The position numbers and the translations under genes were made by a program. This document shows, piece by piece, positions 25,598 to 32,476 of a stretch of 64,000 nucleotides of DNA (positions within the stretch are counted from its first letter, which is position 1; each line of letters starts with the position of its first letter). A model generated the notes under the pieces. That model did not search any database. It saw nothing but the letters and a program-made list of their open reading frames with translations, and was not told the origin of the DNA. The DNA lies in sequence record PP400784. One strand, written 5' to 3'. This DNA is from Escherichia phage FL38.

Positions 25598-26830
25598 TTA
25601 TACTGCCATTTGAGCGGTGATTGCTGGATGGCTTTGATAGTTGTGAATTTTAAAGTCTTTCGGAGTCTTTGTCAATACCTCATCTAAAGATTTAAATTCC
25701 GGCAACTCAATCGTTGGTTTATCAAACGGAACACGGCTTAACTGTTCCATAACTTGATCAAAATGGTTTTTGTAAATGTGAGTATCTCCACCAGAGAAAA
25801 TCAGTTCTCCTACCTCAAGATCACACATTTTCGCTATGATGTGAGTTAACAGCGCATAGCTGGCGACGTTAAAGGGCAAGCCTAAAAAGCTGTCTACGCT
25901 TCTCTGAAACCACATACAAGACAGTTTACCTTCATTGACGTAGAATTGCACGAAAGGATGACATACACCCAATACAGCATTATGTGTTCCTTGTACGTTC
26001 CATGAGTCAATAATGATCCGGCGATCCGTTGGATTGTTTTTAATTTGTTCAATCACGTTTTGTAACTGGTCTTCCCAAATCTTCGGGCGATAGACATATT
26101 CTTCATCGTCTTTAGTGCTCGATGTGTCTACGTCCATACTAGCAAAGATCGTGGTATCTGGTGCTAAAATATCCCCACCCAGATAATCACTATCAAGCAG
26201 ATAACCGAAATAACCATCATCTACCCATTCCTGGAATCCCCACAAGCAATATGCATCATTAACAAAATTAGATTGAGTCTTCCAGTGGTCTGCTACTAAG
26301 AATAGATTATACTCAGAATCAAACTCTTCATAACGCATACCACGCCAGATAGCACATAAACGGTCTTCTGTTTCATTGGTTGGCGTAAAGTCTTCTACCC
26401 ACGGGTGCTTAAATGTATGTGCATATTTGCTCTTAACGCGCTTAATTTTGATTTCACCGTGTGGATGGATCGGTTTGCGTCGCCATGCCATACCATACAT
26501 ATTGCCGACATTATAACCATTGAATCGCAAAGGATTCTTTTCTTTCATATCAAGGCAGTTGCCGCGCCAAATGTCGAAGGCTTCTTCGTCAAACTTACCG
26601 CGTGTAATTTCCTGTAAGCGACGGCGGTCAAGTGATCCCTCCATAAACCATAGCAACTCGCCAATTACAGAGGCTGTAGCCATCTTTTTAGTGGTCAGTA
26701 ATGGGAAACCCTTGCTTAAATCAATTCGCATCTCTGCGCCGAATTTAGATAGCGTACCTACCCCCGTGCGGTCTTCACGAGGCCAACCATTATCAAGAAC
26801 ATCACGCAACAGTTTCAAATATTCTTTCAT
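25598..26830 (-). CDS. td: Thymidylate synthase with about 125-aa internal insertion
   Basis: Conserved TS blocks DRTGVGT, RRIIIDSWN, CHPFVQFYV, FQRSVDSFLGLPFNVASYALL, SGGDTHIYKNH, C-terminal QMAV; 410 aa vs about 286 in T4. Confidence 0.85.
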   Translation of the reverse strand: MKEYLKLLRDVLDNGWPREDRTGVGTLSKFGAEMRIDLSKGFPLLTTKKMATASVIGELLWFMEGSLDRRRLQEITRGKFDEEAFDIWRGNCLDMKEKNPLRFNGYNVGNMYGMAWRRKPIHPHGEIKIKRVKSKYAHTFKHPWVEDFTPTNETEDRLCAIWRGMRYEEFDSEYNLFLVADHWKTQSNFVNDAYCLWGFQEWVDDGYFGYLLDSDYLGGDILAPDTTIFASMDVDTSSTKDDEEYVYRPKIWEDQLQNVIEQIKNNPTDRRIIIDSWNVQGTHNAVLGVCHPFVQFYVNEGKLSCMWFQRSVDSFLGLPFNVASYALLTHIIAKMCDLEVGELIFSGGDTHIYKNHFDQVMEQLSRVPFDKPTIELPEFKSLDEVLTKTPKDFKIHNYQSHPAITAQMAV

Positions 26831-27164: not shown

Positions 27165-27734
27165 TTACGCCTTCTTACGTTCTAAAATTTGTTCGCTGAT
27201 CAGGTAATCATCAAGGAAGTAATTATGTTCTTCTTTTGTTGCAAAGTCAAAATATAATTCCTGAATCATTTCCTTAGAGATACCAACATCATATTCGAAC
27301 GGATCATTAATTCCTGCTCGTTGAACATATGTTAACACAATACGATCCGCAAAGTCAACCGCTTTTTCAATCAGGGAAGGTCCACCGATAACACTTACCA
27401 AACCTTGCGTTTTCTCCAGGACTTTTAACAGATCCTTTAATTCAATTCCAGTATACACATTAGGCTGGTCGCCGTTTTTGGCTTTCGGTGTCGGCTTGCT
27501 GGCATCGGTACTAATAACCACATTAAGACGACCTTCCAGTGCTTTAGGCAGACTTTCAAAGGTATTACGTCCCATTACAACCGCCGCAAGTTCAACATCT
27601 CCCATAGTGCGCATTTTAAAGTTTTCCATGTCCTTTTTGATTGGACGACCCCACGGTAAACCGCCTTTAAAACCAAAAGCCCAATTTTCATCTGACATTT
27701 TAGTGTCACCAATCGCAAATACACATTGAATCAT
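27165..27734 (-). CDS. frd: Dihydrofolate reductase
   Basis: 189 aa; DHFR motifs GGLPWG, VVMGRNTFESLP; T4 position after td. Confidence 0.85.
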   Translation of the reverse strand: MIQCVFAIGDTKMSDENWAFGFKGGLPWGRPIKKDMENFKMRTMGDVELAAVVMGRNTFESLPKALEGRLNVVISTDASKPTPKAKNGDQPNVYTGIELKDLLKVLEKTQGLVSVIGGPSLIEKAVDFADRIVLTYVQRAGINDPFEYDVGISKEMIQELYFDFATKEEHNYFLDDYLISEQILERKKA

Positions 27735-27749
27735 AATATAAATCTCCCA

Positions 27750-28079
27750 TCAAATCAGTTTGAAATAGTTTTCGTTTACATTTTCTTCTGTGATTGCTGT
27801 CTTAAATTCAGTCCCATCATCAGGCGAAACATAATAGTGTTCGGAATAATCACGCCACTTTTTCAGTAAGCTGACACCAATATTAACACCATTTTCCCAG
27901 AAACGGAAGACAATTTTATCGGCAGTGTAACGATAATCACTTTGAATCAAGCTACTGTCACCGCGTCGTGTTTCGTAAATTGTAATACAATCGCGATTGG
28001 CTACTTTTAGGCATGTTTCAATAGTCCCACATGCGATAATTTCGAACGAATCGTTAACTTCTTTTTCTACGGTCCACAT
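27750..28079 (-). CDS. Hypothetical protein (about 109 aa)
   Basis: Start trimmed to MWTVEKEV with SD GAGAGGA; ORF-track start lies in the promoter -10. Confidence 0.5.
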   Translation of the reverse strand: MWTVEKEVNDSFEIIACGTIETCLKVANRDCITIYETRRGDSSLIQSDYRYTADKIVFRFWENGVNIGVSLLKKWRDYSEHYYVSPDDGTEFKTAITEENVNENYFKLI

Positions 28080-28112
28080 AATATAATCCTCTCTTTGTTT
28101 CGATGTATGTGT

Positions 28113-28140
28113 ATTATACACTACTGCGTTACACTGTCAA
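28113..28140 (-). promoter_or_regulatory. Early promoter cassette
   Basis: TTGACA-16 bp-TATAAT overlapping the 3' end of upstream gene. Confidence 0.6.
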
Positions 28141-29511
28141 CTCTTTTTCAAAAGATTTTACGATATACATGATAGTGCTCAATTCTGACGGCGCTACTGT
28201 CTCTGTGTAGCCATCCGGCATATCTTCTTTTGAGATATAGGAAGTTTTACCTTTCATCGCTTCCTTGATCGTGTTCTCTAATTCTAAGATCTTTTGACCG
28301 TCTTGTAAAGTCAATTCATAAAAGATCTCGTGGTCGAACTTAGAAACACGAGATTGGTTTTTCATTCGTTCTTGTGTTGTTAAATTGGTTATTCCAAACT
28401 TAACTGCCGTTAACGATTTATGTTTGTTTAGTTTCTGTACATAAAATGTTCCCGGTTTTATAGGTTGATAGCCCATTTTAGAACATTTTCTGCATCTTGT
28501 CCCAGATTGTACAAATTTACTATATGTTGGTGTATACTCATGACCCATTTCACATGTAATTTTTAATCTTGTTTCGACCCCAGAATAGCTACCTCCACAA
28601 AATCCGTGAAATTTATTATTACCCAACACGGAAATTATATTTTTTATTGCATCGTCTTCGTTCCTGCGACCACTACATACTCCACATCTATATCCACCAT
28701 GAAAAAAATCACTAAACGCAATATTGTACTCATGTCCATTATTACACGTCATATTAAGTCTCGTCCTTATATTTTCGTATTTTCCACCAACAAATCCATT
28801 GAAAATATGGTCTCCTTTGACCGAATTAATTCTATCTAACGCGGTAGTTTCTGTTAAACGCTTTGTCCCGCAGCATTCCGGGCATCTAGTTCCTTGAATA
28901 AAATGACCATACGTTGGTTGATATATGTGTCCATTATTACACTCTATTATTAACTTTGTTTTATGTGCACCAATGTAAGCACCACCAACAAATCCATGAA
29001 ATTTTTCATCGACCAGTGCGTTGATGATATTTTGTATAGCTTCATCATTCGATTTTTTGTGTTTATTATTGCAAATTGGACATGTATTGACACCACCAAT
29101 TATGCTGGAATAACATCTATGGTATTCGTGACCGTGTTCTTTACATTTTAATATAATTTTAGATGTCGATACATTTTTAAACTCTTCTGTCGTGAAACCC
29201 ATAAACTCGCTATCTGTTAATGAAGATTTTATATCATCAATAACTTGTTCGGTTGATTTCTTTGCATTGGGTGCGCATAAACCACATTTGGTTTTTCTTC
29301 CAACTAGTGTTTTAATAGTTTTTGTGTGTGTTGTGTGTCCTTTATCGCACATTATACATACCCTTGTATCACATCCTTTCCAATCATCAACAAACCCGAG
29401 AAATTTGTAATTTATAGAGTGACAATATTCGCGTACTGTATTCTCGTGAATTGTCGGTTGTTTTTGTCTCTTACCAACGCAAATGTCCTTAGCAAAGTAT
29501 GTTTTCAACAT
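28129..29511 (-). CDS. Multi-zinc-ribbon repeat protein with C-terminal GIY-YIG-like (T5orf172-type) domain
   Basis: Five repeats of about 65 aa (GF.GG.Y ... C..GHEY ... C..C); C-terminus GTFYVQKL ... KFGIT ... DGYTETV; start trimmed to MLKTYF with SD GGAGGA. Confidence 0.55.
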   Translation of the reverse strand: MLKTYFAKDICVGKRQKQPTIHENTVREYCHSINYKFLGFVDDWKGCDTRVCIMCDKGHTTHTKTIKTLVGRKTKCGLCAPNAKKSTEQVIDDIKSSLTDSEFMGFTTEEFKNVSTSKIILKCKEHGHEYHRCYSSIIGGVNTCPICNNKHKKSNDEAIQNIINALVDEKFHGFVGGAYIGAHKTKLIIECNNGHIYQPTYGHFIQGTRCPECCGTKRLTETTALDRINSVKGDHIFNGFVGGKYENIRTRLNMTCNNGHEYNIAFSDFFHGGYRCGVCSGRRNEDDAIKNIISVLGNNKFHGFCGGSYSGVETRLKITCEMGHEYTPTYSKFVQSGTRCRKCSKMGYQPIKPGTFYVQKLNKHKSLTAVKFGITNLTTQERMKNQSRVSKFDHEIFYELTLQDGQKILELENTIKEAMKGKTSYISKEDMPDGYTETVAPSELSTIMYIVKSFEKELTV

Positions 29512-29539
29512 TTTTATCCTCCGTTGTTTCGATGTGTGC

Positions 29540-29567
29540 ATTATACATTACCACATAAGCATGTCAA
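29540..29567 (-). promoter_or_regulatory. Early promoter cassette
   Basis: TTGACA-16 bp-TATAAT followed by conserved leader ACACATCGAAACAA. Confidence 0.65.
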
Positions 29568-29592
29568 CACCTTTTTTCATAAAATTTTAGAC

Positions 29593-29620
29593 AATAAAAA
29601 AGCCTCCCCGAAGGGAGGCT
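29593..29620 (-). terminator. Rho-independent terminator after gene 32
   Basis: GCCTCCC-cgaa-GGGAGGC hairpin followed by U6 on minus strand. Confidence 0.75.
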
Positions 29621-29630
29621 GTAAAATTCA

Positions 29631-30599
29631 TTACATCGCTAACAGAGAGTCCAGGTCATCCAGATCAGAAGCTGAGGAAGTACCGCCACCCAGATCCAGA
29701 GATGCCATCAGGTCATCAGCGGAAGAATCTAACGCCGTGCTAGCTGCGTTAATACCAACTACAGTGCTAGCTGTGGTAGTACCAGCGTCGAATGCATTCA
29801 TCTGTGCGTCAAAATCATCAAGCTGGCTGTTAATCGCTGCCGCAGCACTGGAAGCCGCAGCACCAGCTACCATAGAAACGCCCATAGTTTTCTTAAATTT
29901 GGTTTCCAGTTCATCGAACGGTTTAAACTGACTAGGCGCTACAATCTCACTCAGATCAACCATGTTTTCCATCAGATATTTCTGATATGCTTCGTCTTCA
30001 ATTTTCGGAAGCTGTGATTGCTGCATGAAACGAGAATCATCATAGTTCTGGTGTTTATCAACCTTCTTAGCTTTCAGGAGGAAGTTAGCACCGGAGAACA
30101 CACAAGTTACATCTACCGGAACTTCGCCCATGTCGGTATTCACGTTCACCATTGCAACGATCTTATCATAAATTTTCTGACCGAAGCGGAATTTGAATAC
30201 CTTACCTTCATTTTCTGGTGCTTGAGGATCTTTCAGTACCAGAATATTTGCGTAGTAAGACGCTTTACGCTTAATCAGTTGCCATTCGGTTTTATCGGTA
30301 TTGTATAGGTCTTTTTCGTTAATATATTTGCACACAGGGCAAGAATCAAAATCACCGTGGGTGCTTGAGCAGTTTTCCCAATACCATTTACCATTAACTT
30401 TGAAGGAATGGTTTACCAGTTTCACAATCGGCAGACCGTCTTCTGTCTTAGACGGCAGGAAGCGAATCAGGGCTTCACCGTTACCTGCTGCATCAGTCTT
30501 AATCTTCCACTCTTTCGGATCTTCTTTGGAGAAACCGTTGCCACCTTTCAGTGCGGCCAGTTGAGCTTGCAGTTTGGAAGAATCTTGGCGTTTAAACAT
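29631..30599 (-). CDS. 32: Single-stranded DNA-binding protein gp32
   Basis: [27 protein letters not shown], zinc-site [12 protein letters not shown], acidic C-terminal tail parallel T4 gp32; start set at ATG matching T4 N-terminus. Confidence 0.93.
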
Positions 30600-30635
30600 A
30601 TTCACTATTCCTTCTTTTGATTAATTTACTAGACT

Positions 30636-31876: not shown

Positions 31877-32476
31877 TTAACCCTCTTTAGTCATTAATTG
31901 AAAACCACGTTCAGATTTTGAGATTTCGCTAGGACGTAAATCGTCACCAACATATTCTAGCATCATTTCTCGGATAATGTCAAGTGCTTTTTCATCACCT
32001 GATTTTAACTCGAACTCAAGTTCATAATGAGCAGTGTCGCCCAATCCTTCTCCTACTTTGCCATAATAGAAAGTGTCTTTGCACATTTCCACTATACCGC
32101 AACCCATATCTAGAGTCAATGACTTGCGATATGTCATTACTTGCATTATTGTAGTGATATAGTCGGAGTTTACCCCTAGACTATCAATAAAATGGACGAA
32201 CTCATCCCAATTTGAAAATGTCATTTCCTCGCGGTTGAATAGTCCAGATTCATTATCACCCATTTTGACCATGATCTCTGATTTTCTACAGTCAAGTCGT
32301 GCATAAATTCCTTTTTGACGTAGCGCATGATCTTCGGTATCATAATAAAATTCGTGTTTTAATATGTTATCTCGATCGACGATATTATAACCGTCATACA
32401 TTGCCACCCACAAATCACAGATGGTTTCGACGCCAATTTGTGAGTGTGCATAGTATTTTAACTCAAGTTCTTTCAT
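31877..32476 (-). CDS. CYTH-domain protein (triphosphate tunnel metalloenzyme family)
   Basis: N-terminal ELELKYY (ExExK), EFYYDTEDHALRQKGIYARL, YRKSLTLDMGCGIVEM, C-terminal HYELEFELK: CYTH signature blocks. Confidence 0.6.
   Translation of the reverse strand: MKELELKYYAHSQIGVETICDLWVAMYDGYNIVDRDNILKHEFYYDTEDHALRQKGIYARLDCRKSEIMVKMGDNESGLFNREEMTFSNWDEFVHFIDSLGVNSDYITTIMQVMTYRKSLTLDMGCGIVEMCKDTFYYGKVGEGLGDTAHYELEFELKSGDEKALDIIREMMLEYVGDDLRPSEISKSERGFQLMTKEG

Follow-up and report, generated by a model that had tools for sequence, protein, structure and literature searches.

What does the long open reading frame (ORF) beside gene 32 of Escherichia phage FL38 encode, and is it a mobile gene? The deposited labels read either "hypothetical protein" (FL38, the GenBank record of Phi1, and JEP8) or a bare "endonuclease" (RefSeq). 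The stretch of DNA analyzed here (64,000 nucleotides; referred to as the window) derives from a Krischvirus (RB49-like) genome, and the 460-aa product is 100% identical to an FL38 hypothetical protein. It matches PHROG 681, "endonuclease" (E=5.5e-116); an NCBIfam search gave 0 matches, a PDB sequence search with the whole protein found nothing, and tblastn detected no paralogue within the window. We infer that its product is probably a homing-type endonuclease, free-standing and from the T5orf172/MUG113 branch of GIY-YIG, i.e., a protein that would bind and cleave DNA and whose gene would home.

The reading frame and its neighbors

The nuclease ORF lies exactly where a preliminary description of the sequence placed it (28129 to 29511); on the minus strand it reads from ATG 29511 to a stop codon at 28131 to 28129 (460 aa plus stop) (Table 1). 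ATG 29511 was taken as the right start because GGAGG precedes it, whereas an alternative in-frame ATG at 29541 (470 aa) falls inside the promoter −10 box and has no ribosome-binding site. The reported proximity to gene 32 and frd was also correct: the gene is bounded on one side by gene 32 and on the other by a 109-aa ORF, for which there were 0 Pfam matches and which precedes frd. The G+C content of the gene is 0.33 to 0.36, compared to 0.39 to 0.44 in the flanks.

Table 1. Features of the gene 32-frd interval, with positions in the window
Feature	Position	Strand	Basis
frd	27165..27734		
109-aa ORF, homologue of RB49 ORF239, served by the downstream promoter; mosaic segment	27750..28079	-	
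~75-bp direct repeat, downstream copy (promoter and leader)	28086..28160	-	
Downstream early promoter, for the next ORF, TTGACA-16 nt-TATAAT	28113..28140	-	12/12 consensus
Endonuclease ORF	28129..29511	-	ORF list, translation; PHROG 681
C-terminal GIY-YIG-superfamily (T5orf172/MUG113-like) domain, residues 346-460, 115 aa	28132..28476	-	
Zinc module R5, residues 281-345	28477..28671	-	
Zinc module R4, residues 217-280	28672..28863	-	
Zinc module R3, residues 151-216; AF2-modelled module	28864..29061	-	
Zinc module R2, residues 83-150	29062..29265	-	
Zinc module R1, residues 17-82; most divergent, extra CxxC (CIMCDKGH...CGLC)	29266..29463	-	
~75-bp direct repeat, upstream copy (promoter and leader)	29516..29592	-	
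Shine-Dalgarno GGAGG, 6 bases 5' of ATG 29511	29518..29522	-	direct sequence reading
Upstream early promoter of the nuclease gene, TTGACA-16 nt-TATAAT	29540..29567	-	12/12 consensus
G+C-rich hairpin and T-run just past the gene 32 stop: terminator, stem-loop part of PeSL type	29601..29620	-	terminator scan
Gene 32 (ssDNA-binding protein), conserved essential neighbor	29631..30605	-	

The C-terminal domain

The strings cited in the preliminary description for a T5orf172/GIY-YIG-like C terminus (GTFYVQKL, KFGIT, and DGYTETV) are all present. The protein's own Pfam scores are below threshold: at full length it matches neither T5orf172 (PF10544) nor MUG113 (PF13455) at E≤1, and the isolated domain remains below the cut-off for MUG113 (E=0.049; 14.6 bits versus 22.3) and has no match to T5orf172. 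Taken by itself, the protein comes close to having no profile support in this region, a result that the preliminary description had named as counting against its own proposal.

Three kinds of evidence nevertheless uphold the assignment. First, homologues score where the protein does not. BLASTP with the domain finds P0042 (E=2e-24) and P0044 (E=9e-22), both of which pass the MUG113 cut-off (26 bits), as does homologue P0056 (27.5 bits), and P0049, a much weaker domain match (E=0.03), passes both T5orf172 (29.5 bits) and MUG113 (28.7 bits); among the 19 aligned homologues, 11 match MUG113 and 9 match T5orf172. Second, the residues expected of a GIY-YIG domain are present, namely, the strand-1 Tyr, x-[IF]-G, the helix-1 Arg, and a candidate catalytic Glu (E412/E437). 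Y357, K371-F-G-I374, R382, E412, and G434, T436, E437, and T438 (G-x-T-E-T) are invariant in the 19 homologues, and a set of 117 representatives of 50%-identity clusters likewise shows no variation at Y, K-x-G, R, E, and G-x-x-E-T, both Glu residues included. As its second motif the domain has K-F-G, a T5orf172-type variant in which the "YIG" tyrosine is replaced. Third, the AF2 model of the domain (pLDDT 95.9) has the three-stranded sheet, flanking helices, and beta-beta-alpha-beta-alpha core of the GIY-YIG fold, and a Foldseek search of viral models (BFVD) returned 105 matches, some of which carry the names homing endonuclease, GIY-YIG domain, and T5 Orf172 domain. A profile of the domain run against PDB sequences gave chance matches to designed repeat proteins only. 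Placement of the domain in the GIY-YIG superfamily, in its T5orf172/MUG113 branch, and its prediction as a nuclease are therefore supported.

The protein also matches PHROG 559, "HNH endonuclease" (E=3.3e-66), over residues 118 to 355, which comprise zinc modules only. HNH families were absent from the Pfam matches of the protein and of the 117 relatives, and the fold of the C-terminal domain is GIY-YIG; that the protein is an HNH endonuclease is hardly conceivable.

The family is large. At E≤1e-3, the nuclease-domain profile recovers no fewer than 2,055 clusters (50% identity), and direct homologues of the domain occur in Vibrio phages Helene 12B3 and 184E37 and in phage T5. At the same threshold, MUG113 recognizes 26 and T5orf172 12 of the 117 representatives; as current Pfam models thus recognize only about a quarter of them, Pfam-derived numbers of such genes in phages are too low.

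The zinc-module array

The five tandem repeats proposed for the rest of the protein were confirmed, with module lengths of 64 to 68 aa. BLASTP of the protein against itself gave only the identity alignment and no internal repeat match, so repeat significance was measured with unit-by-unit local alignments against shuffles: pairwise scores among R2 to R5 were 11 to 38 SD over shuffles, and those for R1 were 3 to 10 SD. The Pfam CapR homology domain (PF21817) was found in five stretches (E=1.6e-15; 57.5 bits versus a cut-off of 24.2), and DUF4379 also passed (E=1e-8; 35.6 bits versus 24.5).

The motifs originally listed for the repeats hold to different degrees. A C-x-x-C pair is found in all five units, but GF-x-GG-x-Y is exact only in R3 to R5, R1 and R2 sharing just the GF that is present throughout; C-x-x-GHEY occurs in R4 and R5 and is replaced by the variants CNNGHIY in R3, CKEHGHEY in R2, and CDKGH in R1. 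Across 62 modules, C40, C59, and C62 never vary, and a His is usually found at position 44 or, alternatively, at 42, which provides, by sequence, four ligands in two pairs ∼15 to 26 residues apart. The first pair is C-x3-H and not CxxC, which occurs there additionally in R1 only. The AF2 model of R3 (pLDDT 89.7) is alpha-beta-beta-beta-alpha with a C...H...CxxC site, the CxxC starting a short helix. On these sequence matches, the repeats are CapR/DUF4379 zinc modules with a predicted zinc site. The preliminary description called the units zinc ribbons, but the modelled fold looks more treble-clef-like than like a classical two-knuckle ribbon.

Promoter repeats, the empty site, and alleles

The promoters that flank the gene are perfect, of the sigma-70 early type, and in direct repeat. 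The −35 box of the downstream promoter lies inside the final nuclease codons (GAG TTG ACA GTG TAA, i.e., E L T V stop); the annotation of GEC-3S likewise has a −35 signal inside the coding sequence and a promoter at the place equivalent to 29540 to 29567. The terminator consists of an 8-pair stem, AGCCTCCCTTCGGGGAGGCT, followed by TTTTTATTGT, and an annotated terminator occupies the equivalent position in GEC-3S and Makalu_003. The locus thus has the hallmarks of a PeSL (promoter-early stem-loop) cassette, with a sigma-70 promoter and stem-loop and repeats around a dispensable ORF, the stem-loop being present at the upstream copy only.

The polymorphism in presence or absence that the preliminary description proposed looking for does exist. 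As expected for a free-standing homing endonuclease gene, JSE has an intact empty site, in which 121 bp containing a single promoter separate gene 32 from the ORF239 homologue. An unrelated ORF occupies the locus in Makalu_003; the gene is dispensable on both counts. Alleles are carried at the locus by Phi1, RB49, Sf20, GEC-3S, JEP8, and L009, with two modules in Sf20, four in GEC-3S, five in Phi1 and the window and in RB49, and six in JEP8. Only 23 phage records contain the domain at ≥60% identity, compared to 65 records that match the flanks.

The single intergenic promoter of JSE aligns with both copies in the window (upstream, 93%; downstream, 78%), and a cross-match between the two repeat copies is seen in other genomes too. 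Compared to Phi1, the nuclease gene is 99% identical, but the adjoining segment with the 109-aa ORF is only 63 to 77% identical in nucleotides; the recombination junction lies at the 3' promoter, where identity drops sharply. The promoter repeats alone, without cleavage, could explain the gains and losses, and the gene might be passive cargo of a PeSL promoter cassette, moved by recombination at the repeated early promoters and the conserved 3' part with no involvement of the nuclease. Two 12/12 promoters in direct repeat around the gene, exactly one hybrid copy in JSE, the coincidence of the Phi1 junction with the 3' promoter, and the excised mini-circles formed by PeSL-flanked ORFs of RB49 and Phi1 (PMC2839356) speak for such passive transfer. 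It leaves unexplained the invariant catalytic-type residues in the 117 cluster representatives and the occurrence of the cargo's family beside essential genes in many phage lineages (PMC10448857), and it is compatible with homing rather than exclusive of it. As a full account of the gene, passive transfer is very unlikely.

Homology between alleles stops at the start codon and resumes where the nuclease domain begins: the domain is the best-conserved part (∼80% aa identity), and the arrays are unalignable. This pattern, together with the invariance of the Tyr, the Arg, both Glu residues, and G-x-T-E-T, argues against a nuclease-dead, CapR-like repressor acting on the phage's own promoters or on those of rival genomes. 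A regulatory role has precedents in CapR, a single-module relative that is a transcriptional repressor (PMC8096241), and in I-TevI, which binds its own promoter and so regulates itself (cited in PMC10448857), and the gene overlaps a promoter, but we consider this role highly improbable.

In comparison with an allele of 83% identity from the same locus, dN/dS is 0.15 (dS ∼0.7), and the protein is therefore under purifying selection; over the module array alone the value is 0.12. Strong purifying selection on the array, combined with a nuclease domain close to fixation at one locus, would be compatible with a domesticated function as well. The protein might be a site-specific nuclease turned against co-infecting phages (marker exclusion), satellites, or other mobile elements, with array swaps re-targeting it. 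This would accord with the almost fixed nuclease domain and flanks, between which the recognition array alone is exchanged, with the strong constraint on that array, with the early consensus promoter, and with the precedent of Odn, a T5orf172 nuclease that shields ICP1 from PLE (PMC8263062). The dispensability of the gene and the 0 matches to PADLOC defense models count against it. We also know of no satellite-like target in Krischvirus. All signatures of such a weapon are shared with a homing gene, and we regard the weapon as rather unlikely.

Relationship to known systems

T5orf172 genes with repeated CapR/DUF723/DUF4379 modules have been described as homing endonuclease genes at genetic-exchange boundaries (Barth, Dunham & Seed 2023, PMC10448857), and members include ICP1 gp165, gp174, and gp121 and genes of Vibrio phage Helene and T5-like phages (Netter et al. 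2021, PMC8096241; PMC10448857). Barth et al. state that homing by the related genes of ICP1 lacks experimental verification (PMC10448857). The FL38 protein shares with this family an N-terminal CapR-type array (up to six modules in Helene), a C-terminal T5orf172/MUG113-type domain, a location beside essential genes at exchange boundaries, and signs of module and domain swapping. It differs in that its nuclease branch is mostly below Pfam thresholds, and hence missed by a Pfam-based census, and in that the host lineage is the T4-like Krischvirus, while T4 itself has no T5orf172 genes (PMC10448857). The PLE CapR binds DNA specifically through its cysteines, as shown by EMSA and cysteine mutants (PMC8096241), but has CxxC as its first zinc knuckle (CxxC...CxC), whereas the FL38 modules have C-x3-H. 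Finally, in the FL38 locus it is the entire array that is exchanged, at a single fixed site between the promoter and a near-identical nuclease domain.

The sole relative with demonstrated cleavage in vitro and a catalytic Glu mutant is Odn (Gp88) of ICP1, a distant member of the family in which Glu-to-Ala mutation abolishes activity (PMC8263062). Compared by description, the two proteins share a T5orf172-type, GIY-YIG-like domain at the C terminus in which Arg and Glu are conserved. Unlike the FL38 protein, Odn has a RepA_N DNA-binding domain and no zinc modules, and it is an anti-satellite weapon, not a homing gene.

The Seg endonucleases and I-TevI are the classical GIY-YIG homing endonucleases, and T4 SegG adjoins gene 32. 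The FL38 protein has no detectable sequence similarity to Seg proteins or I-TevI; its nuclease domain is C-terminal rather than N-terminal and belongs to the T5orf172/MUG113 branch, and it has a zinc-module array in place of NUMOD/helix-turn-helix binding parts.

In RB49 and Phi1, PeSL promoter cassettes mediate the shuffling of genes (Arbiol et al. 2010, PMC2839356). As in these cassettes, the FL38 locus has a consensus sigma-70 promoter and a G+C-rich stem-loop 5' of a dispensable ORF, repeat copies flank the ORF, and a close relative without the ORF has a single copy. In contrast, the downstream copy in FL38 has no stem-loop, and its −35 box lies within coding sequence. Arbiol et al. neither discuss the nuclease ORF (ORF240) nor mention its locus between gene 32 and frd (PMC2839356).

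Proposed mechanism

For the homing-type endonuclease that we favor, we propose the following. (i) Early transcription of the gene would start at a consensus sigma-70 promoter of its own. (ii) Lined up like beads, the five CapR/DUF4379-type zinc modules would jointly recognize a long DNA site. (iii) The array would position the C-terminal GIY-YIG-like domain, which would cut by means of the conserved Tyr, Arg, and Glu. (iv) A related Krischvirus genome without the allele would, in a mixed infection, be cut by the enzyme in or near the gene 32/frd interval, and recombinational repair would copy the gene and neighboring markers into the cut genome. (v) The ∼75-bp promoter repeats may provide a second, nuclease-independent path by which the cassette is gained, lost, or exchanged through PeSL-type recombination. 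A computational search for a cleavage or recognition site identified none.

Implications

The architecture is already described by Barth et al. (2023), and the general picture for ICP1 and T5-like phages is unchanged. What the analysis provides is a settled annotation, in which "hypothetical protein" and "endonuclease" give way to a T5orf172-type, CapR-array, homing-type nuclease of predicted function, and the finding that T4-like Krischvirus phages carry this class. It also provides a natural allele series built around a single nuclease domain, in which the swap boundaries are defined and the locus is empty, is occupied by an unrelated ORF, or has two, four, five, or six modules.

This allele series is convenient material for studying how zinc-module arrays set target specificity, and it could separate homing from promoter-repeat recombination in the mosaicism of therapeutic coliphages. 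A bolder and quite unlikely idea is that CapR-type modules form a re-assortable recognition system, each recognizing a fixed short DNA segment, and that the Krischvirus gene 32 locus is a natural array-exchange site, where two to six modules are swapped between the promoter and the constant nuclease domain and re-target the enzyme. If a recognition rule per module exists, the arrays might serve as a programmable DNA-binding scaffold of a new kind, one that is already fused to a small nuclease.

The putative endonuclease gene and its surroundings

The gene lies between gene 32 and the 109-aa open reading frame (ORF). Its coordinates and 460-aa product, as given in the preliminary description, were borne out by comparison of the candidate start sites: a GGAGG stands at the usual spacing before ATG 29511, whereas ATG 29541, the start of a 470-aa version in the mechanical ORF list, shares bases with the −10 hexamer of a perfect promoter. 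The product is 100% identical to a deposited Escherichia phage FL38 "hypothetical protein". Matches to the 3.9-kb region were found in 65 phage records, virtually all of them from RB49-like T4-type coliphages (genus Krischvirus), with Phi1 closest (95% identity, 100% of the query covered). G+C content is 0.33 to 0.36 in the gene and 0.39 to 0.44 around it. To judge from sequence comparison, the protein is kept by selection and is not decaying; relative to an 83%-identical allele, dN/dS was 0.15 overall, 0.12 in the array (at a dS of ~0.7) and 0.35 in the nuclease domain.

Features of the endonuclease locus and related features discussed in the text (FL38 positions are those of the window)
Feature	Record	Position	Remarks
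199-aa ORF	FL38	31877..32476 (−)	After dsbA; CYTH/YgiF-like according to a note in the annotation of RB49 and to weak Pfam marking (CYTH) of a related contig
gene 32	FL38	29631..30605	Upstream neighbor
G+C-rich hairpin with T-run	FL38	29620-29601	After gene 32 stop
Upstream sigma-70 promoter	FL38	29567-29540	12/12 consensus match; follows hairpin
Endonuclease ORF	FL38	29511..28129 (−)	460 codons plus stop
Second sigma-70 promoter	FL38	28140-28113	12/12 consensus match
109-aa ORF (ORF239 homologue)	FL38	27750..28079	Downstream neighbor; starts at ATG 28079, not the listed GTG
109-aa ORF region	FL38	27750..28122	DNA 63-77% identical to Phi1 and RB49, 79-89% to JSE
frd	FL38	27165..27734	After 109-aa ORF; td next
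Small mosaic segment in frd	FL38	27385..27522	99% identical to RB49, 82-83% to Phi1 and JSE
td (thymidylate synthase) ORF	FL38	25598..26830 (−)	410 aa
Mosaic td insertion region	FL38	25738-26035	67-78% nucleotide identity to JSE
109-aa ORF, unrelated	Makalu_003	L005 1536-1865	Replaces the endonuclease gene
107-aa ORF	Metagenomic contig L009	3927-4250	Alongside the endonuclease gene
T5 homologue	AY587007.1	95859-96656 (L004 1039-1836)	265 aa, two modules; immediately upstream of pb2
Nuclease-domain copy in JSE	NC_012740.1	65904-66218	44% identical; annotated "endonuclease"; locus other than the empty gene 32 site

Zinc modules and nuclease domain

The five tandem repeats of about 65 aa noted earlier are well founded. 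Division of the N-terminal 345 residues at each recurrence of GF yields five units (R1 to R5) of 64 to 68 aa; local alignment scores are 11 to 38 SD over shuffled controls among R2 to R5 and weaker (3 to 10 SD) for R1 against the others. Five stretches match the Pfam CapR homology domain, which scores 57.5 bits where the cut-off is 24.2 (E = 1.6e-15), and DUF4379, a "probable treble clef zinc finger", matches the protein at E = 1e-8. The motif strings in the preliminary description are exact only in R3 to R5 (GHEY only in R4 and R5). An alignment of 62 diverse modules taken from homologues shows three invariant cysteines and, usually, a histidine four (sometimes two) residues past the first, so the predicted module site is C...H...CxxC. 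Module number ranges from 1 to 6 across 52 homologues.

The T5orf172/GIY-YIG-like assignment of the C-terminal domain holds through its relatives, although here the protein itself has no match to either family at Pfam threshold: T5orf172 matched neither the 460-aa protein nor the isolated domain, and MUG113 reached only E = 0.049 on the latter, under the cut-off. Two homologous proteins that align with the domain, P0042 (a "GIY-YIG nuclease family protein" according to NCBI; E = 2e-24) and P0044 (E = 9e-22), are both above the MUG113 cut-off, and two more (P0049 and P0056) exceed that for T5orf172 and/or MUG113; among the 19 aligned homologues, 11 match MUG113 and 9 match T5orf172. The aligned homologues share the invariant residues expected of such a domain: Tyr (strand 1), K-F-G-I (strand 2), Arg (start of helix 1), Glu (helix 2) and a G-x-T-E-T motif, a core likewise invariant across 117 sequences that each represent a cluster at 50% identity. 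Foldseek returned 105 viral models at E ≤ 1e-3, with names that include "Homing endonuclease", "GIY-YIG domain-containing protein" and [quoted passage not shown]. Homologue Pfam matches, invariant residues and Foldseek together place the domain in the T5orf172/MUG113 branch of the GIY-YIG superfamily. A regulator that has lost nuclease activity is unlikely, because the catalytic-type residues are invariant. PHROG 681 ("endonuclease"; E = 5.5e-116) spans both modules and nuclease domain; the match to PHROG 559 is limited to the modules, and its "HNH endonuclease" label is therefore misleading.

Polymorphism and exchange at the locus

The presence/absence polymorphism anticipated among related phages was found, content at the gene 32/ORF239-homologue site varying between genomes. 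The site is empty in JSE and holds another ORF in Makalu_003, while the remaining alleles carry two (Sf20), four (GEC-3S), five (the window, Phi1, the 83%-identical metagenomic allele and, with an unrelated-looking array, RB49) or six (JEP8) modules. The ORFs in Makalu_003 and L009 indicate that this intergenic site can host other small promoter-flanked ORFs.

DNA homology between alleles ends at the start codon (~29512) and picks up again at ~28447 to 28485, the first nuclease-domain codons; by this comparison, the recognition array appears to be the only part swapped. The nuclease domains share ~80% protein identity, and their last ~85 residues are nearly identical. In the homologues P0037 and P0039, the domain is ~50 to 58% identical overall, yet the final ~25 residues end in identical TETVAPSELSTIMYIVKSFEKELTA, which suggests either recombination breakpoints within the domain or that the overlapping downstream promoter constrains this end. 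Identity to Phi1 is 99% in the gene and only 63 to 77% in the next 300 bp downstream, a drop that puts the gene at a recombination junction. A sharp mosaic junction is located at the downstream promoter. Elsewhere, td matches Pfam Thymidylat_synt in two stretches (the one reported pairs residues 254 to 410 with profile positions 110 to 266); its in-frame insertion, roughly residues 120 to 253, matched no Pfam family, and td is annotated at about equal length in RB49, Phi1 and JSE.

The second promoter has its −35 box within the final ORF codons (GAG TTG ACA GTG TAA), as in the GEC-3S annotation. Together the two promoter-leader segments (~75 bp each) make up a direct repeat, of which JSE, without the gene, has one copy, a hybrid resembling the upstream copy of the window in its 5′ part and the downstream copy in its 3′ part. 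Such an arrangement is that of the promoter-early stem-loop (PeSL) cassettes of RB49 and Phi1, which Arbiol et al. demonstrated to recombine (PMC2839356); they do not mention the nuclease ORF. Passive carriage of the gene as PeSL cargo has a low probability.

Proposed mechanism and relation to known systems

The gene is most likely a free-standing homing-type endonuclease, a reading for which the experiments all come from relatives: the T5orf172 protein Odn cleaves DNA and a Glu mutant of it is inactive (PMC8263062), and CapR uses its cysteines to bind DNA (PMC8096241). The related ICP1 genes are putative homing genes (PMC10448857). The array would recognize a long DNA site, the GIY-YIG-like domain would cut nearby, and recombinational repair during mixed infection would spread the gene with adjacent markers; the promoter repeats may offer an additional, nuclease-independent path for excision, insertion and exchange. 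A role as a weapon for exclusion or against other elements has a small but appreciable chance of being correct.

Barth, Dunham and Seed had already reported in 2023 that T5orf172 genes with repeated CapR/DUF723/DUF4379 modules are laid out as "beads on a string", swap domains and occupy exchange boundaries (PMC10448857); the present gene belongs to this known type. Particular to it are its host lineage (Krischvirus), a nuclease-domain branch that Pfam largely fails to detect, a first knuckle of C-x3-H type, flanking promoter repeats with one −35 box in the codons next to the stop, and a clean allelic series at a single locus, all useful details rather than surprises.

A profile of the nuclease domain, nearly always C-terminal in its matches, retrieved at least 2,055 clusters (50% identity) with a threshold of E ≤ 1e-3 and 1,102 with one of E ≤ 1e-10. 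It is present in 227 phage records, including Krischvirus, T5-like phages, jumbo coliphages and phages of Vibrio, Aeromonas, Klebsiella and Salmonella, where frequent annotations are "endonuclease" and "putative homing endonuclease"; the T5 homologue was annotated "RB49ORF238c-like" in 2005. The 117 cluster representatives include 84 with CapR, 40 with DUF4379 and 25 with DUF723, but in the family-wide alignment only 26 match MUG113 and 12 match T5orf172 at E ≤ 1e-3. Pfam-based censuses of T5orf172 homing genes therefore undercount this branch of the nuclease domain.
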